Position numbers and translations under genes: made by a program. The notes below the pieces were generated by a model. It did not search any database and had not been told where the DNA came from. It was given only the letters and a program-made list of their open reading frames with translations. Below, one piece after another: positions 5,336 to 32,931 of a stretch of DNA of 64,000 bases (its first letter is position 1; the number at the start of each line of letters is the position of its first letter). The DNA is from Octopus vulgaris (lineage: Eukaryota): assembly GCA_951406725.2 (NCBI GenBank), contig OX597831.1, forward strand, positions 49,042,001-49,106,000, in the 5' to 3' direction.

Positions 5336-7645
5336 GCTCTATATTGATGAAAGACTCGAAAAAACAATTGCAAATACAAATATAGTCCTCTCTGGCCCAG
5401 AACTAAGATACAAATAGGCGCTTGGAATTTATGCATTATGTATGAAGCATCAAAATCTACCCAAATACTGGTTTCAAATTTTGGAATAAGGGGGATAAGT
5501 TGATTACATCGACCTCAGTGTTCAACTGGTACTTATTTTATCGACCCTGAAAGGAGGAAAAAATAAAGTCGACCTGGGCGGAATTCGAACTCAACGTAAA
5601 GACGGACAATACCGCAAGTATTTTGCCCGGTGTGCTAACGATTCTGCCATTTCGCCGCCTTGAGTCTACCCAAATGTTAAAAGAAATTATCAGATACTTG
5701 AACTCAGCAAGTATCGTTGGACTGGATCCGAGAGCCAAAATATGAATACTAGCGCGAACCATCCTGTTGCTCAGGACACGATAAGATCCTCATAACAATG
5801 TAGAGGTAATAGGTAGAAAGGAGACGACCATTTTCAGTTAGACTGGGACTGTTACGTTGAAGAAATGCTTTTGTTCCCATTTTCGAAGATTCACTGTTGA
5901 GTTGCCATTAGTTTGGCATTTCGACTTCGTGTTATTCCATAATGAACAGACACGAACATAATTGTATGTTTTTATTATAAGATTTATCGAACAGGGTAAC
6001 AACCGAAGGATCTTTTCTTTTTGAACGGCACTTTGTAACATAATTTCTAGGTAACTAAAAAGTTTTAAACTTCGTATACTGGTAGAATGTGTTTATAAAA
6101 CATCATTTTCTCTTGGCTTTATTGAGAAAATTCTATATGTTGTAACATATTTCGTCTTTAATTTCGAGCATTTCGGCAATTTTAACCAATCGCTGACCTC
6201 CATTTAGGTAAATAACATTCTGTGCATAATGAATATGTCCCTCCTTTAAGAAACAGATTGGGTTTATTTACATTTGTGAAGAAAAAAAGATACCCTTCCC
6301 CAACCCCGGAAAAAAAAAGTGAAAAATGAAGAAATTGGGAGCGAGAGGCAAAAAATTTCAAAATTCCGATTTTTTGCAATTTTCCGGAATCTCCATATCT
6401 GAAAACATGGGTTTTTGGGCACAAATAAATAAAAAAAAAAACAATAATTTGCGAGAAAATGGATGGGGACGGGAGGAAGTCTTTCCATGAAATGTTCTAG
6501 ATTCCACTTACACCTGGAATTTGTTGTGGAAAAATTTTCCATGGCTAGGGAGAGGATTTTCGGAAAGTTTACTCAGCTCTCAGAAAAACGGATATTATTT
6601 TGAGAATTTTTTTTTTATAAATACCTTTCAGAGCATGAAGATAATGATCATGTTGGAACTGAATATGAAAAAATTCTCGTTGTGCTCGCATGAAATTTGA
6701 AATTTCGAAAATTATCAGTATGTCTGTGTGTGCCCACCTTTTATTCCTCACATTTAATTTCGGTATTCCAATATAATCGCAATATATTATGCACACTCTA
6801 AAAGATATTTGTTGAAAATTTCATTGAAAATACCCATTTTTCAGAAAGTTGTGAGGAAAGAAAGATGACACGCGTGAATTTTCTGAAACTTCCTTCCCCA
6901 CCTACAGAAGAAAAAAAAAATTCATAACAAATTCTTATATAATCGGTTTCTATACCACCTGAAGTGTATTTGTAGAAAGATTCGTTGGAAATTATTAATT
7001 TTTCTGGAGGTTATGAAGAAAGAAATTTGGAGGCACGATTGTGTAGGTATGCCGTAAAAACTATGTTTGCGATTTCATTTCACGTTCCAAAAAAAAAAAA
7101 AAGCCTTGTGTATGGATTCACACAAACTAAAGTACCAAAATCCAGTTGTACATTTAAAATAATAATAATAATAATAAAATTAAAGCTCGCATTTTTATAA
7201 GACACACTTTTCATTTATATCTACGAAAAAATAAATTATTTAATTGTTATCGAACCGTTTGTTTGTTTTGAAACCCTGTTGCGTAAGTTTTCAGGTTGTA
7301 TAAATTATTTGAATTAATGTTTTATTTTAAGTGAAGCTTTAAGTAATTATCAGTAAACGAAAAAATCAAGAGAAAAGATTTGTCGTAGTTTAAAAGTGTT
7401 GAATTACTTCCCTTGAATACTGGCGTATACAGGTAGTGAAGAGTTTTGAAAGATTTCAATTATTAAATCTCTAAAATCTGGGTAAAGTAAATTAAGTAAG
7501 TAGTATGAGACAAAAATGTTGTAATTAAGTAAAATACAATGAGAGTTATTTTGTTTCTGAGGTGTATAAATAAATTAATTGTAAATGTTGGTATAAAATC
7601 ATCGAATGTATTGAACAGTAAAGGTTTAAATATATTTTTCTATAT

Positions 7646-9794
7646 CGGGGAGTTGTGACGCTGATCCAGAAAGACCCGAGCAAATAGTATAATATTGGTA
7701 ATTATAGGCCCATAACTCTACTTAATGTAGAGTTAAAGATTTTGGCCAAGGTGTTAGCAGAAAGGTTGAAGGTCGTCGTCAAGAAACTTGTTGGGAAGGC
7801 ACAGACATGTACAATCCCAGGCAGATCGATCGAAGATACTCTTTACCTTCTCCATTACACTATAGACAGGGTTGGGAAATTAGCCGGCAAAGGAGGGGCA
7901 TTGTTCCATTTAGACCAAAGTAAAGCATTCGATAGGGTAGATCATCAGTACTTGGCAGCGGTTCTCGAGGCGGCTGGGCTAGGCCCTGGCTTTCGCGGGT
8001 GGATCTCACCTATGTACAGTGGCATAAAGTCCACAGTCCAGATAAATGGTTACCTAACGGAGCCATTTTCGATTAAGCATTCAGTTCGTCAAGGATGTCC
8101 CTTGTCCCCTCTCCTGTTCGTTTTGGCTCTTGAGCCATTGCTGCGGAAGTTGGAGACGTTGGGATGCAATCCTAATGAAATCAGATGCGGTAAGTCTGTT
8201 TCTGCTTATGAGGATGACATCACCTTCATCGTGTCCAACGAAGCACAGCTAACTCGTGTAGAAGGTGCTCTCCGAAGATACGAAGCGGTGGCAGGGGCAG
8301 AAGTTAAGGACAAGTCCACTGGTTTGCGCCTCGGCACCTGGAGGAACAAGCCAATATCGTCCAGTGTTGTTGGACACTGGACAGATGGTCCTTTTAAATT
8401 GCTTGGAGTTTGGTTTGGTTCACACTCCCAGACGGAGAAAAATTGGAGCAAGGTAGTGAACAAGGTAGAAGCATTAGTACGGAAGTGGTCTGGAAGGCAT
8501 CTTTCCTTGAAAGGCAGGGTGGAGGTATTACAGGTGTTTATAGCATCTGTCATCACCTATTGCCTGACCGTCGTGCCTTGCCCCGATTTGTAGGTAAGCA
8601 AGTTGGAACGACTCCTTTTCCGCTCTTTGTGGAAGGGAGGAAAGCCACTTGTAAGGCGCTCCATGTGTTGCCAGGAACCACTAAAGGGTGGGCTGGGGAT
8701 GCCTTCGTTAATGATGTGCAGGCATGCACTGAGACTGAGACATCTCTGGTTTCACCTGGAGGGTGATAAGGTGTGGAGTCCGCTGGCAGAGGAATTCTTC
8801 CCGCGACCGCACTCTCCTGAGAGATTTAAGCCCGGTTTCATTAAAAGACAGAATCTGACTTTATGGCAGAAGGAGTGCCGACAGGCACTCTGGCTGATAC
8901 ACAAGATGGACAAAGACGGCAGCGGGAATACCACCTCGACGTTTTATAGAAGGATGGTAGAGGCAAAAAATGACGACATCATAGGAGGGGTTCTGGGGTT
9001 TGATGAGGATCAACTATCCAACCTGTTTAAGAAGACTTTCAGGCTGGGGTATTTGGACAATTACCAAAAATCCCTGACTTGGCAGTGCTATAGGAATGCT
9101 CTACCTGTTCGCGATAAGTTATTTAGGCACGGAATGTCAGTGCCACCGACATGTCCAAGATGTGGGTTGGACGATGAAACCGTTCAGCATGCTTTTATAC
9201 ATTGCCAGGAGCTGTCAAGCTTAATAAGTTACGTAGAACACGTGTTGTCGCATCTGGGACGAATACAGCTATTGGCTGGTTCTATAACAAAGATGATACC
9301 GCCAGCTGGACTCTCAAAGGAAGGTGAGGCTTGTTTTCACTGTACGGTGGCAGTACTGAAAGAGTGTGTGTGGAGAACTAGAATGGAAGGTTTGGTGACA
9401 TGGTCCTTTGTCTCTGGCTATGGTCTGTTAAAATACTTCAGATTATCATCTGAAGAGTAAGATGGATTTGGAGAAGAGGAACCTGACACAGAAAAAGTAT
9501 GTGATTCGATGGAAGGATGTGATGAAAAAGTTGGGTGTGAGTAACCCTGCTTAGTCATCATGAAAGGAGAAAATAGTCTCTGGGCTTTTAGGCTGCCGGG
9601 TAACAATCTATACTGTGGTATACTTATCCGGCCAATTTTATTTTTAAAAAAACAGGAGAAATGTGAAGTCTAGTATTATAATTATTACTCAACATCTGTA
9701 AATACCAAACGAACTACATAACTTTTTTGTAATTGTATTTTGTACTGTAATATCCTACCTTTGCAACGATTTTTATAATCATAATAAAGATTTT
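7646..9794 (+). mobile_element. 5'-truncated Tx1/L1-type non-LTR retrotransposon (RT, C-terminal zinc finger, 3' UTR)
   Basis: NYRPITLLN, LDQSKAFDRV, QGCPLSPLLF, YEDD (degenerate YADD), GGLG, CPRC..ETVQHAFIHC; in-frame stops near 7686 and 8591; AATAAA at 9783-9788. Confidence 0.9.
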
Positions 9795-9957
9795 ATACTT
9801 ACCTGGCACAGGGTTACACCATGATCAGCAAGGTGGTTCTCCCAGAGTGAGGCCCTTCCATTGCACTCCGGTTGGGTTGACCTTTGCGATCGCCCCAAAT
9901 GTGGGCGACTCGGGTGCGCTATTTCTAAGTGTGGGGTCTGCGTTCGCGCTCATCCCG
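9795..9957 (+). ncRNA. U1: U1 snRNA gene, copy 1 (divergent subtype; LINE directly upstream, probably promoterless)
   Basis: ATACTTACCTG 5' end, loop I GATCAGCAAG, loop II ATTGCACTCC, stem III, terminal GCGTTCGCGC hairpin; 163 nt; genomic-type 3' flank with no poly(A). Confidence 0.93.
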
Positions 9958-10281
9958 TAAATCAAACAAAGATCAGACTAATAATAATGAATCCTAGATT
10001 CATCTTGCGCAATCTAAGGTAACTCATAATTGTAAGAAATGAGAAGCATAGTTTTATATATACATACATAGTCACTTTTTCGCTGCCATTTCTAGCAAAT
10101 CATTCACTGCAGAATACTATTGTGGATATTATTTTCTTGCGGACGAATGTGTATTTGGTATCTTTTATAGATTGGTGGTTTTTAGGCTGCTATTTCTAGC
10201 AAGTCGATCCTTCATCGAATGGATTTCGATAAATTCTATTCATATTCGATGCATTTAGGTTCATATTTTCACAATGTTCCT

Positions 10282-12882: not shown

Positions 12883-13045
12883 ATACTTACCTGGCACAGG
12901 AGTAAACCATGATCATCTAGGTGGTTCTCCCAAAGTGAGGCCCTTCCATTGCACTCCGGTTGGGTTGACCTTTGCGATCGCCCCAAATGTGGGCGACTCG
13001 GGTGCGCTATTTCTAAGTGTGGGGTCTGCGTTCGCGCTCACCCCG
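12883..13045 (+). ncRNA. U1: U1 snRNA gene, copy 2
   Basis: Full U1 motif set; conserved upstream block and 3'-box-like AAAAATAGA. Confidence 0.96.
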
Positions 13046-13066
13046 TCATATAATCGAAAAATAGAC
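13046..13066 (+). terminator. snRNA 3'-box-like element (AAAAATAGA here; AAAAACAGA after copies 4 and 10)
   Basis: AAAAA(T/C)AGA about 10 nt after the U1 end, retained in both 3' flank types; resembles the A-rich..AGA half of the 3' box. Confidence 0.55.
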
Positions 13067-13618
13067 TGTCCGACTACAGAAGTTGGAATTTCTCCTTTTG
13101 AAAGGGGTTTTCCAGGTCCTTTCTATTTTCATTTGTCTTTCAAATTATGAAAAACGTTTTGGCTGGGTTTTGTCATCTTATTTTCTCCAAGGCACCCGCG
13201 GATTATGGTAAAAATCGATTTTCAGCCATAACTTTTACCAATTTCAACGTGAGTTAAGGCGAGAAACAAAAACAAAGAGTAAATTTTTAGATTAACACCC
13301 GCTCGATTTTCACCAAGAAAAAACTCGGACTTTTTGCGTGGAATCAAGTACCCTGACCTCATAATATGCTACAGATCACTTATTTTAGTTCGGTAAGGAA
13401 GTGGGGTGAGGGGACCCCCCCCCCAATCCCGGATCATTAGGAATTTTTTCTTTTCGTTGAATGAATTTCTGTGACAAAACCCTTTTTAGGGATAGAAAAT
13501 CGGTGTGAGTTGGAAGCCTCTGAAATTCTAACCACTCTTATTTTACAGAAAAAAATTTCCAAAGTGAATTATATGGTTCGTCATTGAATAGAGTAGAGAA
13601 CGTGATATTATATATATA

Positions 13619-14007
13619 CTGGCAGTATCGCCCGGCGTTGCTCGGGTTTGTAAGGGAAATAACTATATAACCATTTTTAGAGAGTTATATAAAAAAAAAT
13701 GCATTGAAAATGGGAAAAAAAAATGATGGTAAATTTTTTTTTAAATCGTTGACTCATCGTAGACATTTTTAGAGAGTTACTTCCCTTATATAATAGCGAA
13801 AAAATGCATTAAAATGGAAAAAATCGATGGTAAATATTTTTAAAATCATAGACTCATCGTGGACGCGCGCTAATACCCAGAAGGGCTCGATATCAATCAC
13901 GACTATAAGATACCCGGTTTTGGTTAAACTGCACCGCAAAATGTGGGAGCAGTTAGGAATCTAAATCGTAGGAGACAGACACACAACTTCACTTTTATTT
14001 ATAAAGA
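13619..14007 (-). mobile_element. Non-autonomous Helitron
   Basis: Minus strand starts TCTTT.., ends with hairpin CCCGAGCAACGCCGGG followed by CCAG (CTAG in the other copies); A^T target. Confidence 0.75.
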
Positions 14008-14143
14008 TATATTTTCAACCATAACTTTTAGCAATTTTGATGTATTTTGTTCAAATTCGATGCCAGCATTTCTTAGGACTCATGGGATTTTTGATTGCTT
14101 TAAGTTCTTCGGGGAAAAAAATCGATAAAACGATTCCTTATGG

Positions 14144-16285
14144 AGTAATGTGTGTGTGTGTGTATGTATGTATGGCCGATTCAGTGTTTACATTATTTCG
14201 AGTTAAAACGAAAGATTACCTTTGCCTGTTTATGTAACGGTCTGCTATGTAGAAAATAATGAGGTTGACTCAATGGAATAATGACTGATCGAAGATATAG
14301 ACAAATTTTTTTTTATTTAATCGTTATACATGCCTTGTCGACTGCTACTGTGCAGCCTTAATGTCTCTGTTGATTTGACGATGGTGAAATGGTAAGAAAA
14401 AGACGGGAGAGTTATAAAATGAGGAGGAGATATTCTTCTCATGAGAAAAGAGTTGCATGCAAAGGAAAAGGCTTTGAGCAAAAGGCTTCGTTTCACGTTA
14501 CTATGATCGACACAGTTTTAAATGGGCAACCCTACCCGTCTAGCCTCAGGGTGGCATCACTCAGAAGCTACAACAATGCGAGGAAGCGCATTGTGACCAG
14601 CGATATGTAGCAACATCCGACAGTCTAGTCGGTACAGTGATTTGTGTTGTTTTGAGACGAAGGGACAGTTCCGAAATGCCAAATTCCTCTTCTCCCCACG
14701 GCACACGAACTCATCCAGACTGAAGAATCAACATGGCTTTGCTAAGTCAATTGATGTGTTTTCCGTTTGACTTAAAACTTTTCCGCGTCTACACAGACAC
14801 CACACGAAAACAATAGGTGTCACAGTGATATACCTCTTTTTCTACAGTCGGCCGAAATGAAGAAGTGACAATGCCACCTTCACATTCTCTATTGTCAGCA
14901 TCGAGCATCGACAATTGGTGACAGACCGACGTTATTAGAATACATCAATCACAACGATACAACTGGTTACCCACAACGTGATTCGAACACAACAACCCTG
15001 CCACAATTGCTGACCCCCGAACCACAGAACTGCAGTCTTCGTTACCTTATCCATTACATTTGGTGAGCTCGACTTCAAAGACTTACTGCTTTAGCATCGC
15101 ATGAACTCTTGAAAACAATTACAGTCCGTGCCAGTCGCATCAACAAGAATTATAGGACACGAACTTTCACGACGCATAGTTTTCAGTTCCATCGTTACAT
15201 GCCCAACACAACACGAAAGGAATGAAGTCACCGACTCAATGGACACACACTAATTACATTCCACATGTACTGCAACCCGATGCACAGATCCACGAGGGAA
15301 ACAGTTGCGATACATAAATGCAACACTTAGGACAGCTACCCAACCAAGAGAACTAACCTTTTCTCACTTTTCAGCATAGACTTTTCACACAGGACATTAC
15401 CAATAGGATTTTGTCACTTTTCGTTACACATTTTGTACTGTTCGTTCCTGTTGCTGCACAACACAATGTTTACACATGCATATATATGCATGCTTGCACA
15501 CAGTTTCTGTGCACATCTATAGACTATTAACTTTTTTTTTCCTTTGCATGCAACTCTTTTCTCATGAGAATATCTCCTCCTCATTTTATAACTCTCCCGT
15601 CTTTTTCTTACCATTTCACCATCGTCACATTAACAGAGACATTAAGGCTACACAGTAGCAGTCGACAAGGCATGTATAACGATTAAATAAAAAACAAATT
15701 TGTCTGTATCTTCGATCACTGTCATTATTCCATTGAGTCAACCTCATTATTTTCTACATAGCAGACCGTTACATAAACAGGCAAAGGTAATCTTTCGTTT
15801 TAACTCGAAATAATGTAAACACTGAATCGGCCATATATACATACACACACACAAACATACATACACACACACATACATACACATACATACATACACACAC
15901 ATACATACATAGATACATACACACACACATACATGCATACATACATATACACATACACCGAGTAAAAAATTTCAGTTATCTCTCTCTTTCACACATTACT
16001 CTGTCTCTTCACACACACTAACAGAAGCACTTCACTTACACAACATACTGTCTGTCTCCCACATCCCATTAAACACACACACACACACACACGCATACAC
16101 ACACACATGTACATCAATGCTTGCCATGCACGGTAACTTCAAAAGAACTTCCCTCGTCATACAATCGCTTTCTCTTAGTCTCTTTTGCTCTCATTACTTC
16201 AAAAGTTCCCGCAAGCCCATATGTAAAAAAAAAGAAGTTTTTTACGGAAATCGACTGAAAGGTCTACTAGAGACGAAAGATTGCC
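14144..16285. mobile_element. Large foldback member of the Merlin-like family (left end deleted)
   Basis: ~320-bp inverted arms at 14149-14469 and 15535-15860; right arm ends GAAAGATTGCC like the MITEs at 2.6-4.1 kb. Confidence 0.6.
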
Positions 16286-17360
16286 ATTTTTTTTCTGCTG
16301 TAAAGGATCCCACCATAGTTTTACGTGCAAAGAAATTGGCCAAAATTAGTCCGGAGTGTGATGGTGAGGTTGGTGGGAGAGTAAAAAAAGAATAAATTTT
16401 GAACACGTATCTTCGTAAAAATTTGCCCCTCCCCTATTAAATTCACGAAGAGCTTTGTTATACTGCCTGCTATCCAATGTATCCCTTGAGATTGCCATGA
16501 CCCCCTCCCCCCAATCCTCTTTACAGTCTTACACAGTAGATCCGTAAGTACTATACTCATAAAAGTGCCGTCTGAAGCGGGTCGCTACATTGCCTCCTCC
16601 CCAAATACGCTACAGGCATTGATTGTAAACATCTTCCATCAGTGGTTTGTTTTATAAAATATTGTATTTAGTAGTGAAATTTTGGATCTTTTCATGAAAT
16701 TTTTTCTTTTACATAATTTTTTCTTGAATGTATGTCTATATTTCAACGAAACACGATATTACTTATTCCGGTATCAAACAACCGGTCGTACATACAGTGG
16801 ACTGTGTTTAGCCCCTTGTGGGTAGTAAAGAAATAGGTATCTATACAGATATCGTATACGTGCTTGCGTACGTGCGTGCGTGCGTGCGGATGTGTGTATA
16901 CTCTACTTGTTCCCCACCAACGGTTGACAACCGGCGCTGGTTAGTTTTCATCTTTGTAAAAAATAGAAACCATTGTGTGTAATTTGGGGAAGATTTCGTG
17001 GTTATATCTAGCATGCCTAACGATCATGTAAGATGCTCTTTTGTTGGTTCGTTTTGTGTAGTAAATGTATTGCAGTAAATATCTTTATCGGTAAACTTAC
17101 TGAAATTGTCTCCCTTGTTCATTTGCCGTTACTGTTGGATTAAACGAGGCTATAATTTCTAAATTTTATAATATTTCAAGAAATTAAAGCATTATCTTAC
17201 TAAACCATTGAATTAGAAATAATGAGTTGTAGTAGTTGAGTTCTAATATATATAATGAAAATTGATGAAAAATTAATATTTCAAGGTAATATTAGAGGCA
17301 ATATCAGTGAAGTTACAATGCAAATATCGTTTATATGAGATTTGTGAACGCCGAAAAAAT

Positions 17361-17523
17361 ATACTTACCTGGCACAGGAGTAAACCATGATCATCTAGGT
17401 GGTTCTCCCAAAGTGAGGCCCTTCCATTGCACTCCGGTTGGGTTGACCTTTGCGATCGCCCCAAATGTGGGCGACTCGGGTGCGCTATTTCTAAGTGTGG
17501 GGTCTGCGTTCGCGCTCACCCCG
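17361..17523 (+). ncRNA. U1: U1 snRNA gene, copy 3
   Basis: Same sequence as copy 2, same upstream block. Confidence 0.96.
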
Positions 17524-18076
17524 TCATATAATCGAAAAATAGACAGTCCGACAACAGAAGTTGGAATTTCACCTTTTGACAGGAATTTTCCAGGTTCTTC
17601 CTTTTTTCAAATTATAACATTTTGGAAATTTTGTCAACTTATTTTCTCCAAAGCACCCGCGGATAGTGGTAAAAATCGATTTTCAGCCATAACTTTTACC
17701 AATTTCCACGTGAGTTAAGGCGAGAAACAAGGACAAAAAGTAGGTTTTTAGATTAACACCCACTCGATTTTCACCAAGAGAAAGCTCGGACTTTTGGCGT
17801 GGAATCAAGTACCCCGACCTCCTAATATGCTGCAGATCACTTATTTTTAGTTCGATAAGGAAGTGGGGTGAGGGGAAAACCCCGGAATCATTAGGATTTT
17901 TTTTTTTTCGTTGAATGAATTTCTGTGACCTGCTAATATGCTACAAAAGCCTTTTTGGGGATAGAAAATCGGGGTGAGGTCGAGGCCTCGGAAATTTTAA
18001 CCACTCCCAACATTTTATAGAAAAAGTTTTCCAGAGCGTGAATTATATGGTTCGTTATTGAATACAGTAGAGAATG

Positions 18077-18952
18077 TGAAATCATTTGCTGCGTCTAAAA
18101 ACTGAGACACGCTGGTTACTGTTACGTAAACAGCACACACACACACACGTGTTATTCATCCTTCTCTCTTCTGTCTGTCTCGCTCTTTAGTCATCCGCAC
18201 ACATAAATGTCATTCATACATGTGTGCGTGTGCACATGTTTATATATTTATTAGTAAATTTCTTCTTTACGATTATTAGTAAATTCACGTTTATTTATCA
18301 TTATCAATAACGAATTACTGCCGTTGTTTAGACCGGCCCCATTACGTAACTGGTACTTAATTTATCCCTAACTCTTACCCTAACACTAAACCTAACCAAA
18401 GCTAGCGACCGATGTCACAAGATAGGGTTAGGGTTAGGGTTAGGGATAAATTAAGTACCAGTTACGCATGCACGCACTGGTGTCGATAGAGCCCCTTGCC
18501 GGAACAAATTTACACAAAAGGTAAATAAACCAGAAATGGGGATCAATGTTTCATCGTTTCGGGTTCGATAAATTAAGTACCAATTACGCACTGGTGTCGA
18601 GGATTTTTTCCCCAATTTATATCACAGCCTCCGACAAGCTGGGGCATCCTTTTATGAAAAAACTTTTCGCAAATTTTTACAATACGAACCACACTCCACG
18701 CACACCCTCATATCCCACTCTAGACCGATTTAGGCATATTATTGTTTTGTTTTTGGCCCTTTAAAACCATGGGAGAAGCGTTTTTGGTAAAAAAAAAAAA
18801 AAGAATAAAGAAAATATTCATAAAATATCGTTGATATTTTTATTGCGCGACGAAATTCATCGATTTAAGAGATATGGCTGTTATTTCTAGCACATGCCAA
18901 CACAACCCTCCTCATTTGTTTATCAATATCGATAACGCAGCAAATGATTTCA
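18077..18952. mobile_element. Putative MITE with 18-bp TIR TGAAATCATTTGCTGCGT
   Basis: Perfect inverted match between 18077-18094 and 18935-18952; no TSD found. Confidence 0.5.
18345..18466. repeat. Palindrome containing TTAGGG/CCCTAA repeats fused to SINE-core sequence
   Basis: CGTAACTGGTACTTAATTTATCCCTAA ... (TTAGGG)3 ATAAATTAAGTACCAGTTACG. Confidence 0.8.
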
Positions 18953-20134
18953 GCTCAAAAGAGAGCATAGGATTGGTTAAAATTCGAAAAATTAAACTAC
19001 GTTAAACAAACGAATTACAAATTTATCAAAAAAGCCAAGTGAAAATAATGTTTTCTTTTGACACATTCTACCAGTATACGAAGTTTCAAATTGTTTAGTT
19101 AACTAGAAATTGTGTTGAATTCTGTCTATCAAAAGGAAAAGATCCCTTTTTTTTTTTTACTGGAAAGGATCCCACCATAGTTTTATGTGCAAAGAAATTG
19201 GCCAAAATTAGTCCGGAGTGTGATGGTGAGGTGGTGGGAGAGTAAGAAAGAATAAATTTTGAACACGTATCTTCATAAAGAGATGCCCCTCCCCTATTAA
19301 ATTCACGAAAAACGTTGTTATATTGCGTACTATTCAGAGTGTCTCTTGAGATTGCCATCATTCCCACTCCGATCCTAAGTACTATACTCATAAAAGTGCC
19401 GTCTGAAGCGGGTCGCTACATTGCTTCCTCCCCAAGTACACCACAGGCATTGATTGTAAAAGTCTTCCGTTAGTGGTTTTGTTTTATAAAATATTGTATT
19501 TAGTAGTAAAATGGTTAATACTTCAATAATAATGTTTTACTTGTTTTACATAATTGTGTCTTGAATGTACGTCTATATTTCAACGAAACACGATATTACT
19601 TATTCCGGGCATCAAACAACCGGTCGTACATACACTGGTATATATACAGATATCATATACGTGCATGTGTGTATGCTCTATTTGTCCCCCACCACCGCTT
19701 GATAACCGGCTCTGGTTAGTTTTCATCTTTGTAAAAAATAGAAACCATTGTGTGTAATTTGGGGAAGATTTTGCTGTTATATCTAACATGCCTAACGATC
19801 ATGTAAGATGCTCTTTTGTTGGCACGTTTTGTGTAGTAAATGTATTACAGTAAGTATCTTTATCGGTGAACTTACTGAAATTGTCTCCCTTGTTTATTTG
19901 CCGTTACTGTTGGATAAAACAAGGCTATAATTTCTAAATTTTATAATATTTCAAGAAATTAAAGCATTATCTTACTAAACCATTGAATTAGAAATAATGA
20001 GTTGTAGCAGTTGAGTTCTAATATATATAATGAAATTTGATGAAAAATTAATATTTCAAGGTAATATTAGAGGCAATATCAGTGAAGCTACAATGCAAAT
20101 ATCGTTTATATGAGATTTGTGAACGCTGAAAAAC

Positions 20135-20297
20135 ATACTTACCTGGCACAGGAGTAAACCATGATCATCTAGGTGGTTCTCCCAGAGTGAGGCCTTTCCA
20201 TTGCACTCCGGTTGGGTTGACCTTTGCGATCGCCCCAAATGTGGGCGACTCGGGTGCGCTATTTCTAAGTGTGGGGTCTGCGTTCGCGCTCACCCCG
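20135..20297 (+). ncRNA. U1: U1 snRNA gene, copy 4
   Basis: Full U1; two stem II substitutions compatible with G-U pairing. Confidence 0.96.
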
Positions 20298-20506
20298 TCA
20301 TATAATTAAAAACAGACATAATTAAGAAGAATTTTCCCGTAAATCAAATAAAGAATAGCGGCTCTCCGTCTACAGCTCTCGGTACACAAACATTTTTTTT
20401 TTGTTAAATCCATTTGCACTTATTTTCCTACAGCCTTTCAACGGTCGTTGGCGCCCCTATCCCCTTATCATATATATATATTTTCATGTTTATAATACAT
20501 AAGCGT

Positions 20507-20742
20507 ATAAAACTTAGATATGTTTCGACCAAAGATTGGTCCAGGTCATATCTAAATTACTAGCATCACCTGATAGGATTATCTTAATCCTGTTCAAGTC
20601 AAGTTTTGTTTATGGTCCATTCAAGCAGTGAGTTTTTATTGGGTGAGTTGTTGGGTGGATTATCTGGTATTCCTTGAAGGAATCTATCCAGACTCTGTTT
20701 AAAGTTGATGGGATCCTTTTACTCTTTGATCTCTTACGGTAC
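20507..20742 (-). mobile_element. 3' end of a CR1/L2-group LINE (ORF2 C-terminus and 3' UTR hairpin)
   Basis: Minus frame VP*EIKE*KDPINFKQSLDRFLQGIPDNPPNNSPNKNSLLEW; GACCAATCTTTGGTC hairpin then GAAAC..CTAAGT near the end. Confidence 0.65.
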
Positions 20743-22343
20743 TCCTCTTTGATCTCTTTCGGCATCCTCCTTTGATCTCTTTCGGCACAATCTTTGATCT
20801 CTGTCGGTACCCTCTTTGATCTCTTTCGGCACCCTCTTTGAAATCTTTCGGGACTCTCTTCGATCTCTTCCGGCACCCTCTTTGATCTCTTTCGGCACCC
20901 TCTTTGATCATTTTCGGCACCCTCTTTAATCTCTGTCGGCACCCTCTTTGAGCTCCGTCGGCACGCTCTTTGTTCTCTTTCGGCACCCTCTTTGATCTCT
21001 TTCGTGACCCTCTTTGATCTCTTTCGGTACCCTCTTTGATCTCTTTCGGTACTCTTTGATCTCTGTCGGCACCCTCTTTGATCTCTTTCGGCACCCTCTT
21101 TGATCTCTTTCGGCACTCTCTTTGATCTCTTTCGGGACTCCTCTTTGATCTCTTTCGGCACCATCTTTGATCTTTTTCGGGACCCTCTTTGATCTCTTTC
21201 GGTACCCTCTTTGATCTCCTTCGGCACCCTCTTTGATCTCTTTCGGCACCCTCTTTGATCTCTTTCGGTACCTTCTTTGATCTCTTTCGGGACTTCTCTT
21301 TGATCTCTTTCGGGAACCCTCTTTGATCTCTTTCGAGACCCTCTTTGGTGTCTATCGGCACCATCTTTGATCTCTTTCGGCACTCTCTTTGATATCTTTC
21401 GGGACTCTTCTTTGATCTCTTTCGGCACCATCTTTGATCTTTTTCGGGACCCTCTTTGATCTCTTTCGGTATCCTCTTTGATCTCCTTCGGCACCCTCTT
21501 TGATCTCTTTCGGCACCCTCTTTGATCCCTTTCGGTACCTTCTTTGATCTCTTTCGGGACTTCTCTTTGATCTCTTTCGGGAACCCTCTTTGATCTCTTT
21601 CGAGACCCTCTTTGGTGTCTGTCGGCACCCTCTTTGATCTGTTTCGGGACTCGTCGTTGATCTCTTTCTGCACCCTCTTTGATCTCTTTCGGCACCATCT
21701 TTGATCTCTTTTGGCACTCTCTTTGATCTCTTTCGGCACCCTCTTTGATCTCTTTCGGCACCCTCTTTGATCTCTTTCGGGACCCTCTTTGATCTCTTTC
21801 GGGACCCTCTTTGATCTCTGTCGGCACCTTCTTTGATCTATGTCGGCACCATCTTTGATCTCTTTCGGCACTCTCTTTGATCTCTTTCGGGACTCTTCTT
21901 TGATCTCTTTCGGTACTCTCTTTGATCTCTTTCGGGACTCTTCTTTGATCTCTTTTTGGACTCCTCTTTGATCTCTGTCGGCACCCTCTTTGATCTCTTT
22001 CGGGACTCGTCGTTGATCTCTTTCTGCACCCTCTTTGATCTCTTTCGGGACCCTCTTTGATCTCTTTCGGCACCCTATTTGATCTCCTTCGGTCGGCATC
22101 CTCTTTGATCTCTTTCGGCACCTTCTTTGATCTTTTTCGGGACTCCTCTTTGATCTCTTTCGGGTCTCCTCTTTGATCTCTTTCGGCACCCTCTTTGATC
22201 TCTGTCGGCACCGTCTTTGATCTCTTTCGGCACACTTTTTGATCTCTTTTGGGACTCCTTTTTGATCTCCTTCGGGACCCTCTTTGATCTCTGTCGGCAC
22301 CCTCTTTGATCTCTTTTGGGACTCTTCTTTGATCTCTTTCGGC
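20721..22343. repeat. ~22-bp minisatellite, roughly 70-75 units (core TCTTTGATCTCTTTCGG plus variable 4-6 nt linker)
   Basis: Directly visible tandem repeat; includes a ~267-bp (about 12-unit) internal duplication (21314 vs 21581). Confidence 0.95.
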
Positions 22344-22916
22344 GGATTTCATACATTTCGTTGTCTAGCCTATCACACGCCTGCATGACGCTGGGTTTTC
22401 CGCTGCCCTGCTGCTGCATAAACTTTCGGATAGTGCTCCATGCTCTCTGGGCATCTGCAAACGAAGCGTATTTCTCTTCCACAATTACCTCGTCGTCTTC
22501 ACTTTCCACCATAACTTTCGTTATGCATTACCTCCTTTGCTATTTCTTCTAGAGTGAAACATGTCGGAAAATACAAGGGGCGGTAACTTGTATCAGATAT
22601 TACTAATGATACGAGGGGCCCGACAATAACGTTTTTCGCAGCATCGATAATCTCCTTCTTTTCCTTCAGCGTAAACTCAGTCCGCTTGCGTTTCTGAGCT
22701 GACATTGTGTGCTACTTTCTGCACTTTTCCACAAGATTACAAATACGAAATGTACAAAATGTCGGAGTACAAAATTTTGAAAAGTTGCGTGCGCTTCAGT
22801 TTACAAGTGGCATAGTAGCGAGATTGGCATAGTAAAAAATTTTTTGTTTATTATTTTGCCGGGACCGCGCAAAACTGGCATAGTCGCGAGAGTGGCATAG
22901 TAGCGAGAGTTGACTG
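22344..22916 (-). mobile_element. Internally deleted pogo/Tigger-like DNA transposon, one TIR retained
   Basis: TA-CAGTCAACTCTCGCTACTATGCC TIR with subterminal repeats; MSAQKRKRTEFTLKEKKEII (CENP-B-type HTH start); acidic C-terminal piece ESEDDE..AQRAWSTIRKFM. Confidence 0.8.
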
Positions 22917-23182
22917 TATATATATTTTTTCAACCATAACTTTTAGCAATTTTGATGTATTTTGTTCAAACTTGATGCCAGCATTACTTAGGACTCATGG
23001 GATCTTCGGAAAAAAATATCGATAAACCGATTCCTTATGGGATTTCCTAATCAAATTGTCTGAAACCCATTTTCAGCCAAACGTTTACGAATTTCAACGG
23101 ATTTCGCTCAAATTTGACGTCAGTGTTACTTAGTTTGGCTTGAAACAAAGCGCTTGATAAGCTTAATGATCCTAACTTAATC

Positions 23183-23209
23183 TCCGGCAACGCCGGGCTA
23201 TACTGCTAG
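23183..23209 (+). mobile_element. Helitron 3' terminus on + strand (also at 44662-44689)
   Basis: CCGGCAACGCCGGG hairpin, spacer, CTAG followed by T. Confidence 0.7.
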
Positions 23210-24836
23210 TGTGCGTGTATTTTTAGTGGAAAAGGTGTGAGATTTGGTGTTGATTCTAGCATATCCGAAGACCACTCCCCCGAAAGTAACACAAACGTGG
23301 TCTTTTGGTGGGAAATAAGCAACAACAAGAAGAAGCAAAAGATGGGAATTAAATTTTTTTATCCCCCACCTCAATGTGCGTGTGTAAGGAAAAACTTTTT
23401 CTAACAGAAAAGTATACTGATAAAATGAATTATCTTTTACATGCCACTTTTTTGAAATCACTGTGTATAAGTGCAAGTAATGACCTTCCCAACTCTAAAA
23501 TATTTTGTATTATGAAGAGAAACAATCGATGCTGGGCAGTGGGATTGAAAAAACAATCATAAATTAGAAAAGAAGTTTTTATTGCGTAAATGTGTTTATG
23601 GAGAGAAAAATATTGAAATACATCAATACATGCGTGAGTGAAAAAGAAACGGCGCGGCTTGTCATAGGATGTGCTAGAAACAACAGCCAAATCTCCCTTA
23701 AATCACGCACACATTTTCTTCTGAGAATATTTACAATTTTTTTTTCTGCTGGAAAGGATCCCACCATAGTTTTACGTGCAAAGAAATTGGCCAAAATTAG
23801 TCCAGAGTGTGATGGTGAGGTTGGTGGGAGAGTAAAAAAAGAATTAATTTTGAACACGTATCTTCGTAAAAATATGCCCCTCCCCTATTAAATTCACGAA
23901 GAGCTTTGTTATACTGCCTGCTATCCAATGTGTCCCTTGAGATTGCCATCACCCCCTCCCCCCAATCCTCTTTTCAGTCTTATGCAGTAGATCCGTAAGT
24001 ACTATACTCATCAAAGTGCCGTCTGAAGCGGGTCGCTACATTGCTTCCTCCCCAAATACGCTACAGGCATTGATTGTAAAAATCTTCGTCAGTGGTTTGT
24101 TTTATAAAATATTGTATTTAGTAGTAAAATTTTTATACTTCAATGGAAATTTTGGATCTTTTCATGAAAATTTTTCTTTTACATAATTTTTTCTTGAATG
24201 TATGTCTATATTTCAACGAAACACGATATTACTTATTCCGGCATCAAACAACCGGTCGTACATACAGTGGACTGTGTTTAGCCCCTTGTGGGTAGTAAAG
24301 AAATAGGTATCAATATTGATATCGTATACGTCCTTGCGGACGTGCGTGTGTTTGTGTGTGTATGCTCTACTTGTTCTCCACCACCGCTTGACAACCGGCC
24401 CTGGTTAGTTTTCATGTTTGTAAAAGAAATAGAAACCATTGTGTGTAATTTGGGGAAGATTTTGCTGTTATATCTAGCATGCCTAACGATCATGTAAGAT
24501 ACTCTTTTGTTGGTTCGTTTTGTAGTAGTAAATGTATTACAGTAAATATCTTTATCGGTAAACTTACAAATAAAACTGGAATTGTCTCCCTTGTTCATTT
24601 ACCGTTACTGTTGGATTAAACAAGGCTATAATTTCTAAATTTTATAATATTTCAAGAAATTAAAGCATTATCTTACTAAACCATTGAATTAGAAATAATG
24701 AGTTGTAGTAGTTGAGTTCTAATATATATAATGAAAATTGATGAAAAATTAATATTTCAAGGTAATATTAGAGGCAATATCAGTGAAGTTACAATGCAAA
24801 TATCGTTTATATGAGATTTGTGAACGTCTAAAAAAC

Positions 24837-24999
24837 ATACTTACCTGGCACAGGAGTAAACCATGATCATCTAGGTGGTTCTCCCAAAGTGAGGCCCTTC
24901 CATTGCACTCCGGTTGGGTTGACCTTTGCGATCGCCCCAAATGTGGGCGACTCGGGTGCGCTATTTCTAAGTGTGGGGTCTGCGTTCGCGCTCACCCCG
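24837..24999 (+). ncRNA. U1: U1 snRNA gene, copy 5
   Basis: Full U1 motif set and upstream block. Confidence 0.96.
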
Positions 25000-25436
25000 T
25001 CAAATAATCGAAAAATAGACAGTCCGACAGAAGTTGGAATTGCGCCATTTGACAGGGATTTTCCCGGTTCTTCCTTTTTTTCATTTGTCTTTCAAATTCT
25101 GAAAGACATTTTGGCTGGGTTTTGTCAACTTATTTTCTCCAAACCACCCACGGATAGTGGTGAAAATCGATTTTCAGTCATAACTTTTACCAATTTCCAT
25201 GTGAGTTAAGGCGAGAAACAAAAGCAAAGCGTAGATTTTTAGGTGAACACCCACTCGATTTTCACCAAGAAACAACTCGTACTTTTTGCGTGGAATCAAG
25301 TACCCTGACCTCCTAATATGCTACAGATCACTTATTTTAGTTCGGTATGGAAGTGGGGTGAGGGGACCCCCCGCCCCCGGAATTATTAGGAATTTTTTCT
25401 TTTCGTTGAATGAATTTCTGTGACCTGCTAATATGC

Positions 25437-27175
25437 AACCCTCACACAAACCAGTTCACTGACGACCCCCAAGGAATGCGCAGAACTCATTGCCGAGTGC
25501 TATGCAAACATATTCACCGTTGAAAGTCAAAATGTACCATCTTCACCATCTCTAACAGCAAATTCCATAACAACTATGGAATTTACACCTGCAATGCTGC
25601 GACGTCACCTTCAAAATAAGCACGACTATGTCTCCCCTGGTCTCGATGGAGTTACATACCTGCTTCTCAAACGTGGCAGGTACTTCCTTTTACACCAGCT
25701 TTCTATTTTCTTCCAGTACTGTCTCAACAATGGTGCTACTCCGGAGCAGTGAAAAACTGCCAGTGTCATTCCTCTGTTCCAAAAGGGCGACCGCTCATCA
25801 CCTGTCAACTATCGCCCAGTCAGTCTCACTAGCAGTATTGCAAAACTGATGGAATCGTGTGTCAGAGAAACACTTTGGAACTTCTGGAGCTCTCACAGTC
25901 TCATCCGACCCTCACAATATGGATTTGTCCCTAACTCCAGCTGCAGTGATCTGCTTGTCGAGTTCCTTGAGGACATTACTCAGATCACTGACAGTGGCTC
26001 ATGACTGGATGTTTTCTACCTTGACTTTGCTAAGGCTTTCAACTCTGTGCCACACAAAAGGCCTATGGTGAAACTCTCTGCAATGGGTGTGAGGGATGAC
26101 CTTTCTAACTGGTTGAAATCCTTCATTCTCAGCCGAAAGGAGGTAGTCACAGTTCTAGGACAGCATTCTACACCATATGAGATGTCATCGGGTGTACCAC
26201 AGGGATCTGTCCTTGGTCCCCTCTTGTTTGTGGTATACATTAATGACATAGATGCCAATTTAAAGAATGCCACAGTATTGAAATATGCAGACGACATCAA
26301 GCTGTACCTTGAAATCAAGAGGACAGATCCTGTTGTCTACAGCTCTTTCCTGCAATCAGACCTGGACACAATGCAGCAATGGATCACAGACTGGCAACTG
26401 AAACTGGCTGTGGACAAGTGTACCACCATGCATTTTGGGAGAAAAAACCCTGCGTCCACATACTCCCTCCACAACACTGATATCAAGAAATCCTCTTGCG
26501 AGCGTCAGCAGTGATTTGCATCTCTGTCAGCAGTGATTTGCGTTGGACAAAGCATATCTCTAAAATTGTCAAGAAGGCCGAGGGTGTCTTGGCATCACTC
26601 AGCAAGACTTTTGTTAGCCGCTCTCCAGCCATCTATTTAAAACTGTATACAGCTATGGTACGACCACACTTGGAATTCGCATCATCAGTTTGGGACCCCT
26701 ATCTTGCTCAGAACATTGACCTCCTGGAATCTGTCCAGAGACGTGCAACCAAACGCATACCCTCCATCAGACACCTACCATATTCTGAGCGCCTTGTTTC
26801 CCTGGGCATGGATTCACTGAAGCTCCGGCGTCTGGCGACGGACTTGGTAAACACCCACAAAGTTATCAACCACCTCACCAACAACAACACTGAACACCTT
26901 TTTGATCTCCATGTGTCTAACACACGTGGACATGCCTACAAAGTCAGAAAACAACACAGCTCCCATGACTTTCGGAAACAGTTTTTCACGCTCAGAGTTG
27001 CTGAAGCATGGAATAAACTGCCTGCGTCAGTTGTTGACTGCCATGACACTGCATCCTTTAAGGCCCTCATGCTTTCCGAAATCCGCCGTAACTACACCTG
27101 ATTATATATAAACTTTAGATGAGTCGTAGTTCACCTGAGCACTGTACACAATGTTTTATTATTATTATTGTTATT
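25437..27175 (+). mobile_element. 5'-truncated CR1-type LINE, copy A
   Basis: NYRPVSLTS, QGSVLGPLLF, YADD, VRPHLE, LESVQRRATKRI, WNKLP; (ATT)n tail; premature TGA codons. Confidence 0.92.
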
Positions 27176-29351
27176 AAAACCCCTTTTGGGGATAGAAAAT
27201 CGGGGTGAGTTGGAAGCCTCGGAAATTTTAACCACTCTCATTTTACAGAAAAATTTTTTCAAAGTGAATTATATGGTTCGTCATTGAATAGAGTAGAGAA
27301 CGTGATATTATATATATATACTAGCAGTATCGCCCGGCGTTGCTCGGGCTTGTAAGGGAAATAACTATATAACCATTTTTAGAGAGTTATAGCAAAAAAA
27401 TGCATTAAAAATGGAAAAAAAAATTATGGTAAATTTTTTTTAAAATCGTTGACTCATCGTAGACATTTTTAGAGAGTTACTGCCCTTATATAATAGCGAA
27501 AAAAATGCATTAAAATGGAAAAAAATGATGGTAATTTTTTTTTTAAATCGTAGACGCGCGCTAATACCCAGAAGGGCTCGATATGAATCACGACTATAAG
27601 ATACCCTAAATTCGGCTGCTATTTCTAACAGCTCGGTGGAAGATATCTCTTGACCGAAGTTGTACAAGGTCTGTGTTTGCTCCTTGTTTTCTGTTTCTCC
27701 AAAGACCCAACTGAACTCTCGTCTTTAACTTCAGCTGAACAGTTCCCAATCCCAAGAGTACCCTGGTCGTGCAGACCTGATCAAAGGAGTTTATTTTTAA
27801 CCAGACGTAAAGTAACCCTTTACTTCATAGAAATGTTTTATTTCTACGTGGGGGAAATTTGGTTACTATAAGTTTACATTGAAGAGACTTGGTCGTTGAC
27901 AGGAGCCTCATAAGTTAACGCAGCGAACCATTTCATACGAGGCAACTAAATTCTGACCCCACGTTGTTGGCTTGTCACCAGTAACCGATTTTCCTGTTGA
28001 AGCCTACAGTAAAATTACCTTGTTGGGGAGGGGTTAAGCCAATTTTTTAGAACTTTTTTTTGAATTTTCATACTGCAGTTTGCCGTAGCTATTCAAAGTA
28101 AACACAAGTGAATTGTCGCCTGTAGTGGTCTACTTTGAAAAAAAAAATATTTTTCAATGCTTCTAATTGTTTTGTAACGAAAAAAAAAACGCAATTGTCT
28201 TTAAAATAATATACACCGTATATCGTTGAAAAATATTTCCTAAGCTTCAGTAGGGGCTCGCAATTAACTTAGTTTTTGCAATGTTGCGCCAATCAGCTCA
28301 TTTTCATACGCAAGTCGCTGTAGGATCGACTACCTACGACCGGCTAGCGCGGATGCACGTGTGCGCAAACCGGGTCCAGTCTATGCGGCTAGTACCGCCT
28401 CTCCCCTGTTAAATTCACGAAGAGCCTTTTTATAGTGCCTGCTATCCAATTTATCCCTTGAGATTGCCATCACCCCCCCCCCCATCCTCTTTACAGTTTT
28501 ATACAGTAGATCCGTAAGAACTATACTCATAAAAGTGCCGTCTGAAGCGGGTCGCTACATTGCCTCCTCCCCAAATACGCTACAGGCATTGATTGTAAAA
28601 ATCTCCGTCAGTGGTTTGTTTTATAAAATATTGTATTTAGTAGTAACATTTTTATACTTCAATAGAAATTTTTTCTTTTACATAATTTTTCTTGAATGTA
28701 TGTCTATATTTCAACGAAACACGATATTACTTATTCCGGCATCAAACAACCGGTCGTACATACAGTGGACTGTGTTTAGCTCCTTGTGGGTAGTAAAGAA
28801 ATAGGTATCTATACAGATATCGTATACGTGCTTGCGTACGTGCGTGTGTTTGTTTGTGGGTTTGTGTGTGTGTGTATGCTCTACTTGTTCCCCACCAACG
28901 CTTGACAACCGGCGCTGGTTAGTTTTCATCTTTGTAAAAGAAATAGAAACCATTGTGTGTAATTTGGAGAAGATTTCGTTGTTATATCTAGCATGCCTAA
29001 CGATCATGTAAGATACTCTTTTGTTGGTTCGTTTTGTAGTAGTAAATGTATTACAGTAAATATTTTTATCGGTAAACTTTCAAATGAAACTGGAATTCTC
29101 TCCCTTGTTCATTTACCGTTACTGTTGGATTAAACAAGGCTATAATTTTTAAATTTCATAATATTTCAAAAAATTAAAGCATTATCTTACTAAACCATTG
29201 AATTGGAAATAATGAGTTGTAGTAGTTGAGTTCGAATATATATAATGAAATTTGCTGAAAAATTAATATTTCAAGGTAATATTAGAGGCAATATCAGTGA
29301 AGTTACAATGCAAATATCGTTTATATGAGATTAGTGAACGCCGAAAAAAAT

Positions 29352-29514
29352 ATACTTACCTGGCACAGGAGTAAACCATGATCATCTAGGTGGTTCTCCC
29401 AAAGTGAGGCCCTTCCATTGCACTCCGGTTGGGTTGACCTTTGCGATCGCCCCAAATGTGGGCGACTCGGGTGCGCTATTTCTAAGTGTGGGGTCTGCGT
29501 TCGCGCTCACCCCG
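29352..29514 (+). ncRNA. U1: U1 snRNA gene, copy 6
   Basis: Full U1 motif set and upstream block. Confidence 0.96.
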
Positions 29515-29747
29515 TCATATAATCGAAAAATAGACAGTCCGACAACAGAAGTTGGAATTTCACCTTTTGACAGGAATTTTCCAGGTTCTTCCTTTTTTCA
29601 AATTATAACATTTTGGAAAATCGGGGTGAGTTGGAAGCCTCGGAAATGTTAACCACTCTCATTTTACAGAAAAAATTTTCCAAAGTGAATTATATGGTTC
29701 GTCATTGAATAGAGTAGAGAACGTGATATTATATATATTTATATATA

Positions 29748-30520
29748 CTAGCAGTATCGCCCGGCGTTGCTCGGGTTTGTAAGGGAAATAACTATATAAG
29801 CATTTTTAGAGAGTTATAGCAAAAAAATGGAAAATAAATGATGGTAAATTTCTTTTTAAATCGTTGACTCATCGTAGACATTTTTAGAGAGTTACTTCCC
29901 TTATATAATAGCGAAAAAATGGAAAAAAATGATGGCAAATTTTTTTTAAAATCCTAGACTCATCGTAGACGCGCGCTAATACCCAGAAGGGCTCAATATG
30001 AATCACGACTCGGTTTTGGTTAAACTGCACCGCAAAATGTGGGAGTAGTTAGGAATCTAAATCATAGGAGACAGACACACAACTTCACTTTTATGTATAA
30101 AGACTAGCAGTATCGCCCGGCGTTGCTCGGATTTTGTAAGGGAAATAACTATATAAGCATTTTTAGTGAGTTATAGCAAAAAAATAGCAAAAAATGCATT
30201 AAAAATGGAATAAAAAATGATGGCAATTTTTTTTTAAATCGTTGACTCATCGTAGACATTTTTAGTCCCTTATATAATAGCCGGGACATTTTTAGTCCCT
30301 TATATAATAGCGAAAAATGCATTAAAATGGAATAAAAAATGATGGTAAATTTTTTTTTAAATCGTAGACTCATCGTAGACGCGCGCTAATACCCAGACGC
30401 GCTCGATATGAATCACGACTATAAGATACTCGAATTTGATTAAACTGCACCGCAAAATGTGGTTGTAGTTAGGAGTCTAAATCGAATGGGACAGACTCTC
30501 ACACAACTACAGTTTTATAT
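29748..30520 (-). mobile_element. Head-to-tail Helitron pair (junction 30103/30104)
   Basis: Plus-strand AAAGA|CTAGCAG equals minus-strand CTAG|TCTTT. Confidence 0.75.
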
Positions 30521-30785
30521 ATATATATATTTTTTCAACCATAACTTTTAGCAATTTTGATGTATTTTGTTCAAACTCGGTGCCAGCATTACTTAGGACT
30601 CATGGGATCTTTGATTGCTTTAAGTTCTTCGGGAGAAAAAAAATCGATAAACCGATTCCTTATGGGATTTCCCAATCAAATTGTCTGAAACCCATTTTCA
30701 GCCAAACGTTTACCAATTTCAACGGATTTCGCTCAAATTTGACGTCAGTGTTACTTAGTTTGGCCTGAAACAAAGCGCTTCTCCC

Positions 30786-31903
30786 GGTACTAGTCGCGTA
30801 GAATGGACCCGGTTTGCGCGCATCCCCGCTGGCAAGTCGTAGATAGTAGATCCTACAGCGACTTGCGTATGCAAATGATCTGATTGGCGCAACATTCCAA
30901 AAATAAGTTAATAGCGAGCCCAAACATTTTTTTTTTTAAAGTAGACCACTACAGGCGACAATTCACTTGTGTTTACTCTGAATAGCTACGGCAAACTTCG
31001 TTAACCATTCAGCTATGCTCGTTCTCTTTCAACTGGAATTTAACCACTGACAAACCCTAAATTATTAGACATTTTGGTCGTGGCCATCCCGCTTTGTTGT
31101 AAATACAATACTGCATTGTTCAGTATGACTTTTAAAAAAATTCGGCTGCTATTTCTAACAGCTCGGTGGAAGATATCTCTTGACCGAAGTTGTACAAGGT
31201 CTGTGTTTGCTCCTTGTTTTCAGTTTCTCCAAAGACCCATCTGAACTCTCGTCTTTAACTTCAGCTGAACAGTTCCCAATCCCAAGAGTGCCCTGGTCGT
31301 GCAGACCTGATCAAAGGAGTTTATTTTTAACCAGACGTAAAGTAACCCTTTACTTCATAGAAATGTTTTATTTCTACGTGGGGGAAATTTGGTTACTATA
31401 AGTTTACATTGAAGAGACTTGGTCGTTGACAGGGGCCTCATAAGTTAACGCAGTGAACCATTTCATACGAGGCAACTAAATTCTGACCCCACGTTGTTGG
31501 CTTGTCACCAGTAACCGATTTTCCTATTGAAGCCTACAGTAAAATTACCTTGTTGGGTTTTAAAACTTTTTAAAAATTTTCATGCTGCAGTTTGCCGTAG
31601 CTATTCAAAGTAAACACGAGTGAATTGTCGCCTGTAGTGGTCTACTTTGAAAAAAAAAAAATGTTTTTCAATGCTTCTAATTGTTTTGTAACGAAAAAAA
31701 AAAAACGCAATTGTCTTTAAAATAATATACACCGTATATCGTTGAAAAATATTTCCTAAGCTTCAGTAGGGGCTCGCTATTAACTTAGTTTTTGCAATGT
31801 TGCGCCAATCAGCTCATTTTCATACGCAAGTCGCTGTAGGATCGACTACCTACGGACTGGCTAAGCGGATGCGCGTGTGCGCAAACCGGGTCCAGTCTAC
31901 GCG
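30786..31903. mobile_element. Mutator-like foldback element (partial copies also 27608-28396, 35541-36331, 39554-40670)
   Basis: ~200-bp inverted arms; GGTACTAG left end here, CTAGTACC right end at 28396 and 36331; flanks GCTTCTCCC and GCCTCTCCC against empty-site GCCCCTCCC suggest a 9-bp TSD. Confidence 0.65.
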
Positions 31904-32768: not shown

Positions 32769-32931
32769 ATACTTACCTGGCACAGGAGTAAACCATGATC
32801 ATCTAGGTGGTTCTCCCAGAGTGAGGCCCTTCCATTGCACTCCGGTTGGGTTGACCTTTGCGATCGCCCCAAATGTGGGCGACTCGGGTGCGCTATTTCT
32901 AAGTGTGGGGTCTGCGTTCGCGCTCACCCCG
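32769..32931 (+). ncRNA. U1: U1 snRNA gene, copy 7
   Basis: Full U1 motif set; CCCAGAG variant at the base of stem II. Confidence 0.96.

Follow-up and report, generated by a model that had tools for sequence, protein, structure and literature searches.

How site-specific LINEs change their targets is an open question, and the usual answer is evolution of the endonuclease. The locus described here, C18:49042001-49106000 of the 2.8-Gb Octopus vulgaris genome (a stretch of 64 kb, hereafter the window), holds ten U1 genes according to an Rfam search, and one of them begins directly behind the last base of a LINE. The question it raises is whether a LINE family targets the first base of U1, as a sequence-only reading of this DNA had proposed, and what would direct it there. 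We consider it likely that the window holds a dead, truncated copy at +1 of a real U1 gene and that its lineage targets U1 +1 and lives by borrowing snRNA-type promoters. The gene and its surroundings comprise the following features:

6484..7643, plus strand: displaced U1 promoter and upstream region, of the same class as the intact paralogs L052, L053 and L060
7596..7607, plus strand: PSE-like motif (PWM score 13.4), found at -58/-59 in intact paralogs, with +1 predicted near 7655
7644..7646, plus strand: 5' junction, with truncation in the middle of ORF2, a target deletion of about 10 bp, two unmatched bases and no TSD
9795..9958, plus strand: U1 snRNA gene (Rfam U1, 125.4 bits), directly 3' of the LINE and now promoterless
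9959..10002, plus strand: genomic 3' flank (3'-box region), common to paralog L052 (95% over 44 nt)
12883..47442, plus strand: nine other U1 genes of the array class, all intact, with promoters of their own and free of the LINE

The three paralogs match both sides of the insertion, namely the 3' flank of the U1 gene (88% over 658 nt in L060) and, on the 5' side of the LINE, the upstream sequence (1296 columns at 78% against the upstream region of L052, rising to 89% across the last 290 nt of 6484..7643). Since both flanks match intact paralogs, the LINE sits between the promoter and +1 of a real U1 gene. A U1 retrocopy or a 3' transduction is ruled out because both flanks match one paralog class, and the earlier claim that this U1 keeps a genomic 3' flank and is no retrocopy holds. 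A LINE-snRNA chimeric retrocopy made by template switching, which would carry the snRNA at the LINE 5' end, lack genomic snRNA flanks and show a shared TSD, was also rejected, as U1 lies 3' of the LINE here and both genomic flanks match intact paralogs. Compared with the empty arrangement in L052, about 10 bp of the target (spacer) are missing, the unmatched bases 7644-7645 precede the element and no TSD was found, in agreement with the earlier remark that no clean TSD is visible. None of the contigs assembled from four sequencing runs bridges the insertion junctions; joints 7639-9795 in run contigs X1 and X6 may be paralogs or the empty allele. The interrupted U1 carries three private substitutions (nt 20, 23 and 159, two of them in stem I) that occur in none of 40 other loci; they fit decay following the loss of the promoter, and the gene is likely decaying. 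The cost would be one of about 40 U1 genes.

Other observations were made around these genes. At 10282-10326, 320 bp past the interrupted gene, the U1 3' end recurs in part (nt 118-162, 91%) with a 3'-box-like flank behind it, and the Sm-site region of all U1 genes in the window (e.g. 13007-13017) deviates from the Rfam consensus, reading UAUUUCUAAG instead of AAUUUgUGG. A short-period tandem repeat occupies 20720-22343 between U1 units, and a lone 5S rRNA match (66.2 bits) is found at 54863-54981 on the minus strand. Elsewhere, L075 (C3:1914245) is a U1 copy with no promoter and a duplicated U1 5' end before it, probably a retrocopy.

The element itself is composed as follows:

7646..9794, plus strand: 5'-truncated LINE comprising the 3'-terminal 2.15 kb of a 5.36-kb element, with 93% identity to the full-length copy L083
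7688..8593, plus strand: RT domain frame (PF00078, E 3.6e-28), ending at an internal stop at 8591-8593
8594..9460, plus strand: C-terminal part of ORF2 with zf-RVT (PF13966, E 8.6e-11)
9783..9794, plus strand: family 3' terminus AATAAAGATTTT, without poly(A)

AATAAA (9783-9788) is followed by GATTTT (9789-9794), and U1 takes over at 9795 in the same orientation without any intervening poly(A), so that the exact and co-oriented contact first noticed in the sequence is real. All 30 copies compared end at the base matching 9794 and poly(A) is present in none of them; 9794 is therefore the true 3' end of the family. A deletion-breakpoint artefact, which had been raised as a way in which targeting could be mistaken, is ruled out by this common end. 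The earlier proposal that the insertion separates the gene from its promoter and places the element under it stands in its first part, since the promoter-like region 6484-7643 adjoins the LINE 5' end. The second part does not apply to this copy: it has no 5' UTR, ORF1 or endonuclease and the predicted start (about 7655) falls inside ORF2, so that, judged from its sequence, it is dead and would gain nothing from the U1 promoter.

The L1/Tx1 group is defined by an ORF1 and an ORF2 with APE endonuclease, RT and a C-terminal zinc motif. ORF1 and ORF2 frames and an L1-like endonuclease (matching L1 EN structures, E 5e-9) are found in L083, RT and zf-RVT in the window copy, which places the family in the L1/Tx1 group, as a possible member of the Tx1 clade proper. 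The window RT frame is 35% identical to Xenopus Tx1L ORF2 (E 5e-49) and 31% to an L1-type fish protein. A quick RT tree, with unreliable deep nodes, three rows left out as short and no Keno, Kibi or Mutsu among its rows, places six genome copies on a long branch of their own and not with Tx1L. A fragment of a related ORF1 (10682-11349, 85% to L083) lies 720 bp downstream of the interrupted U1, and more related-element fragments near U1/U2 genes (C18:48965409-48967334; L204) suggest local enrichment around snRNA loci.

Genome-wide, we found three exact junctions between the element tail and a U1 start, all at C18:49.00-49.05 Mb and within 50 kb of the window cluster. Two of them belong to a stack of related elements that has no U1 body at its end and follows immediately on a U1 promoter of the array class at C18:48998338. 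Full-length relatives bear a second signature of U1. Two of them, the only U1-headed copies in the genome, begin with U1 nt 1-17, and one is L083, which has ORF1- and ORF2-type frames and is placed outside U1 genes, in the 3' flank of a U2 gene (C15:21148400-21155177, between two convergent U2 genes, one of which has its 3' end about 390 bp away). The empty site of L083 in a paralog has only ATACTT and not the 17-nt head, so that the head must have travelled with the RNA. Its length equals the 17-bp TSD of the sister subfamily B, described below, whose copies have an identical 5' UTR start. A third trace is internal:

9620..9632, plus strand: fossil of U1 nt 1-13 in the 3' UTR, 11/13 in the window copy and 13/13 in the basal copy L079

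This motif is confined to the U1 lineage, being absent from the U2 and C lineages, with a chance probability of about 3e-6, and we infer that it may be an old target duplication trapped between two stacked copies.

Among the stray copies, which landed away from known hosts, ATAC is present at the landing site of 7 of 10 (P 9e-15), with no significant match to U1 beyond base 4 (positions 5-8, P 0.10; positions 5-12, P 0.17). This count retains L088, although its body had no blastn match to L083, and leaves out six tails whose ends are unlike the U1-lineage tail (L101, L102, L103, L200, L202 and C27:4350815, with flanks starting ATCA, ATCG, TCGC, ACCT, ATCA and CTCT respectively, none of them ATAC). 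TSDs of 10-12 bp were found in two of nine copies and show that the ATAC-type bases belong to the target DNA. A mere preference for ATAC, with the window insertion as a chance event and the U1 heads produced by template switching onto U1 RNA, has precedents: template switching onto snRNA was proposed for crocodilian SINEU, and U1- and U2-derived heads have been described on Tx1 families whose targets are not snRNA genes, U1 heads among Tx1-Mar families (PMC4494074). The two U1-headed copies may also share one ancestor. However, ATAC occurs at 0.5% of genome positions, which amounts to about 2.8e7 sites when both strands are counted, and there are 42 U1 starts; by our own arithmetic from these figures an insertion would land on a U1 start with a chance of about 1.5e-6, and yet three junctions lie in the U1 cluster. 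Moreover, the heads begin precisely at +1 and are as long as the TSDs of sister copies, and a U2-inserting sister family has as its host head a genuine TSD that follows a real promoter. We consider this alternative very improbable and largely refuted. In addition, a truncated copy cannot owe its position to selection for promoter-driven masters, and that of the window copy is thus direct evidence of targeting. Taken with the junctions and heads, we hold it to be very likely that the lineage repeatedly inserts at U1 +1.

How large a share of insertions these represent depends on the copies counted. U1 junctions make up 3 of 13 non-B tails of the lineage (23%), or 3 of 34 (9%) when the 21 B tails are counted, and the criterion published for a target-specific Tx1 family is more than 20% of flanks in one kind of sequence (PMC4494074). 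Searches for further U1 junctions with one mismatch gave 34 matches against 60 control matches, and none of the 17 of the 34 inspected had an element; of 12 U1-start 14-mers not continuing into U1 (control, 5), 10 had no element. An intact master with promoter, head, LINE and U1 in order was not found.

When the flanks of the 30 closest 3' ends were tabulated, 20 continued into host B (one hammerhead-like repeat), two into U1 starts and eight were stray, so the flanks are not the random ones that would have told against a target. Pooled, PSE-type starts account for 22 of the 30. The proposal of U1 +1 as the family target is upheld by the three exact junctions and the U1 heads and has to be corrected in that the family is not U1-specific: U1-only specificity is ruled out by host B, by a sister family at U2 +1 and by stray sites with ATAC only. 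Host B begins (A/G)GAAG and has no ATAC, and 21 of 21 B-type tails lie at the B site or at a copy of the B head. In the B pairs compared, as many as 13 of 149 bases differ between host flanks, the shared flank mostly stops within 220-860 nt and the elements differ by 0.2-2.4%; passive co-duplication with the host is unlikely for most of these pairs, and the B insertions appear mostly independent from these comparisons. At C2:73.04-73.07 Mb (L104, L105) B-type copies form head-to-tail arrays with the 17-bp host head between units, and the same stacking is seen in the U2 cluster at C3:20.82-20.83 Mb (L186).

The sister family, 88-90% identical, preserves the arrangement intact: promoter, U2 1-14, a relic head of a former host, LINE and whole U2. 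Its tail gave 14 matches, of which five precede U2 starts, seven precede type C repeats, one is stray at ATCGC and one is not an element. Twelve B/C flanks were scanned with our own hammerhead descriptor and five gave a match, compared with 4 of 5000 background windows, and the Rfam hammerhead models gave no match in four B/C loci at E up to 1; hosts B and C are hammerhead-like and candidate type I hammerhead repeats, for which a core with helices I-III close behind the insertion site would be expected, with putative self-cleavage. Newt satellite 2 bears a hammerhead. It also has an snRNA-type promoter and constitutes a precedent for non-snRNA hosts, being different in that it is a host type and not a LINE (PMC2220036).

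What the hosts share lies upstream. Scored with a PWM trained on 15 U1/U2 promoters, 11 of 11 non-snRNA host sites have a PSE-like motif upstream at -59 to -62 (each with a P of 0.0102 or less, the sites not being all independent) and none of three stray sites has one; all host sites, in U1, U2 and repeats B and C, lie about 60 bp behind the same motif. An ATCAGT-type motif near -60 is common to U1, U2, U4 and U5 genes and is a candidate for the PSE consensus of O. vulgaris. It is conceivable that targeting is purely positional, with a particle tethered to the snRNA-promoter machinery (SNAPc or similar) that cuts about 60 bp behind the PSE regardless of sequence, as the constant motif and distance, the stacking of new copies at +1 behind the promoter and the landing of L083 between two U2 genes would suggest. 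We regard this as unlikely, given that stray copies keep ATAC without the motif, that each subfamily stays with hosts sharing its own first bases and that motif-bearing U4 and U5 genes are spared. No insertion was found at 26 U5 loci, two of which hold genes that start with ATAC, nor at six U4 loci (the six top-scoring of 42 U4 matches), and the motif is present in most of the U4/U5 loci examined.

Sequence preference must then be weighed between enzyme and RNA, and here the phylogeny is informative. In a copy tree rooted at the midpoint, with C-type copies most distant and four rows left out as too short, subfamily B is nested within the U1-type copies (support 100/98), and monophyly of the five U1-type rows is rejected (p-AU 7e-103). 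B and U1-type copies diverge by about 3% in DNA, and the B endonuclease has four fixed differences in 264 residues from both U1-headed copies (residues 23, 26, 84 and 146), the hairpin region being identical. Residue 26 differs among all four lineages; at position 146 the U1-headed copies have Q, and the B, U2 and C families have R. A rival explanation is that the endonuclease reads a short core (Y|ATAC in the U1 lineage, Y|ATCG in the U2 family) at open snRNA-type starts, that a few residue changes switch the target and that read-through RNA is incidental. In this sense, the U1 match is significant across four bases only, the U2-family targets (U2 and hammerhead-like starts) all begin with ATCG (13 of 13 element copies), residue 26 is lineage-specific, Q at 146 is found only in the U1 type, and target choice in the group has been described as mainly set by the endonuclease (PMC4494074). 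Nevertheless, host B offers (A/G)GAAG in place of ATAC, B emerged from within the U1 grade with its hairpin region unchanged and about 3% DNA divergence, and its 21 tails are faithful to the B site or head. We consider an enzyme-based switch a serious possibility that is somewhat doubtful.

The reading we prefer, that of a lineage targeting U1 +1 under borrowed promoters, builds on direct observations of site, orientation, displaced promoter, host heads of 14-17 nt on full-length copies, stacking at +1 and absence of poly(A). In the mechanism that we propose, the bottom strand would be cut at -1/+1 and the top strand at about +17, staggered nicks that would yield in a full-length insertion the layout of promoter, U1 1-17, LINE and whole U1. 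The U1 promoter would then make an RNA that opens with U1 1-17 and reads through into U1, which would account for no poly(A) being copied; reverse transcription would be primed where the U1 bases of the read-through RNA pair with the nicked strand. Such pairing may also explain the stray copies on ATAC(TT), and a daughter lineage that entered the PSE-driven host B might have kept to B because its read-through RNA then matched B. Open snRNA-type start sites would likely supply the large enrichment that four to seven matching bases cannot. Going by the layout of heads and promoters, promoter borrowing by full-length relatives is quite probable; that RNA-guided priming is the main source of the sequence preference seems to us evenly balanced. 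Several points speak against the preferred reading: an element lies directly before an intact U1 in only 1 of 42 loci and the stack has no U1 body, the four-base match at stray sites is explained equally well by an endonuclease preference, four changes, with Q versus R at residue 146, may suffice for enzyme-based specificity, and U4 and U5 are spared in spite of the motif and of the ATAC start of two U5 genes.

Previously known systems resemble this lineage in part. Keno, a U2 snRNA-specific family of the Tx1 clade (PMC4494074; PMC4640811), is likewise an APE-type non-LTR retrotransposon in a Pol II snRNA gene with the same orientation and a precise 3' junction. Keno and Utopia share a site inside U2, the downstream sequence starting at nt 39 (PMC4640811), whereas the octopus lineage and its sister insert at nt 1 of U1 and U2 and also use non-snRNA hosts; identity with Keno is rejected by the site. 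A Tx1 family targeting U5 is implied by the legend of figure 3 in PMC4494074. Tx1L (in Tx1D) and crocodilian Tx1-Mar are Tx1-type LINEs that target another mobile element, and some Tx1-Mar families bear U1 or U2 heads; these heads are not tied to snRNA-gene insertion (PMC4494074), whereas the octopus heads correspond to host TSDs at +1, in a lineage that switches between snRNA genes and hammerhead-like repeats. R2, R1Bm and SART1 are co-transcribed with a host gene, and downstream target sequence in their RNA aids accurate priming (PMC4494074; PMC7265360), a mechanism tested there and proposed here; their hosts are rDNA or telomeres, at sites that are not transcription starts. R2 and Keno also have a multicopy RNA gene as niche. 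The DNA transposons Dada-U1A/B target U1 genes with tandem insertion and differ in their DDE transposase, internal U1 site and 6-bp TSD, being no retroelements (PMC3706591). In the literature searched we found no LINE targeting U1 or an snRNA start base; Repbase and the supplements of PMC4494074, outside that search, may contain an earlier description. A search of bioRxiv 10.64898/2026.07.22.740005 gave no match for Tx1, snRNA or promoter.

Our study extends the range of LINE targets to the start base of snRNA-type genes, a class to which the window contributes a clean U1 case with an empty-site proof, a genome-wide junction count and the 3' UTR fossil. It also raises the question of how an snRNA promoter makes a 5.4-kb coding RNA. 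In regard to how targets change, copies that are about 97% identical occupy unrelated targets, U1 and repeat B, only four endonuclease residues apart, and the tree and the fossil U1 motif reveal which way the switch went. A broader reading, which we offer tentatively and hold at slightly less than even, is that of a promoterless, poly(A)-less LINE lineage whose niche would be +1 of any PSE-driven gene, with the target inherited via read-through host RNA. A single landing behind a new snRNA-type promoter would then reprogram the target, on a path that may have led from hammerhead-like repeats to U2 and U1 and from U1 back to a different repeat of this kind, recorded by the fossil host sequences in the 5' head and the 3' UTR. 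If true, target choice in this family would be RNA-programmable with an almost unchanged endonuclease.
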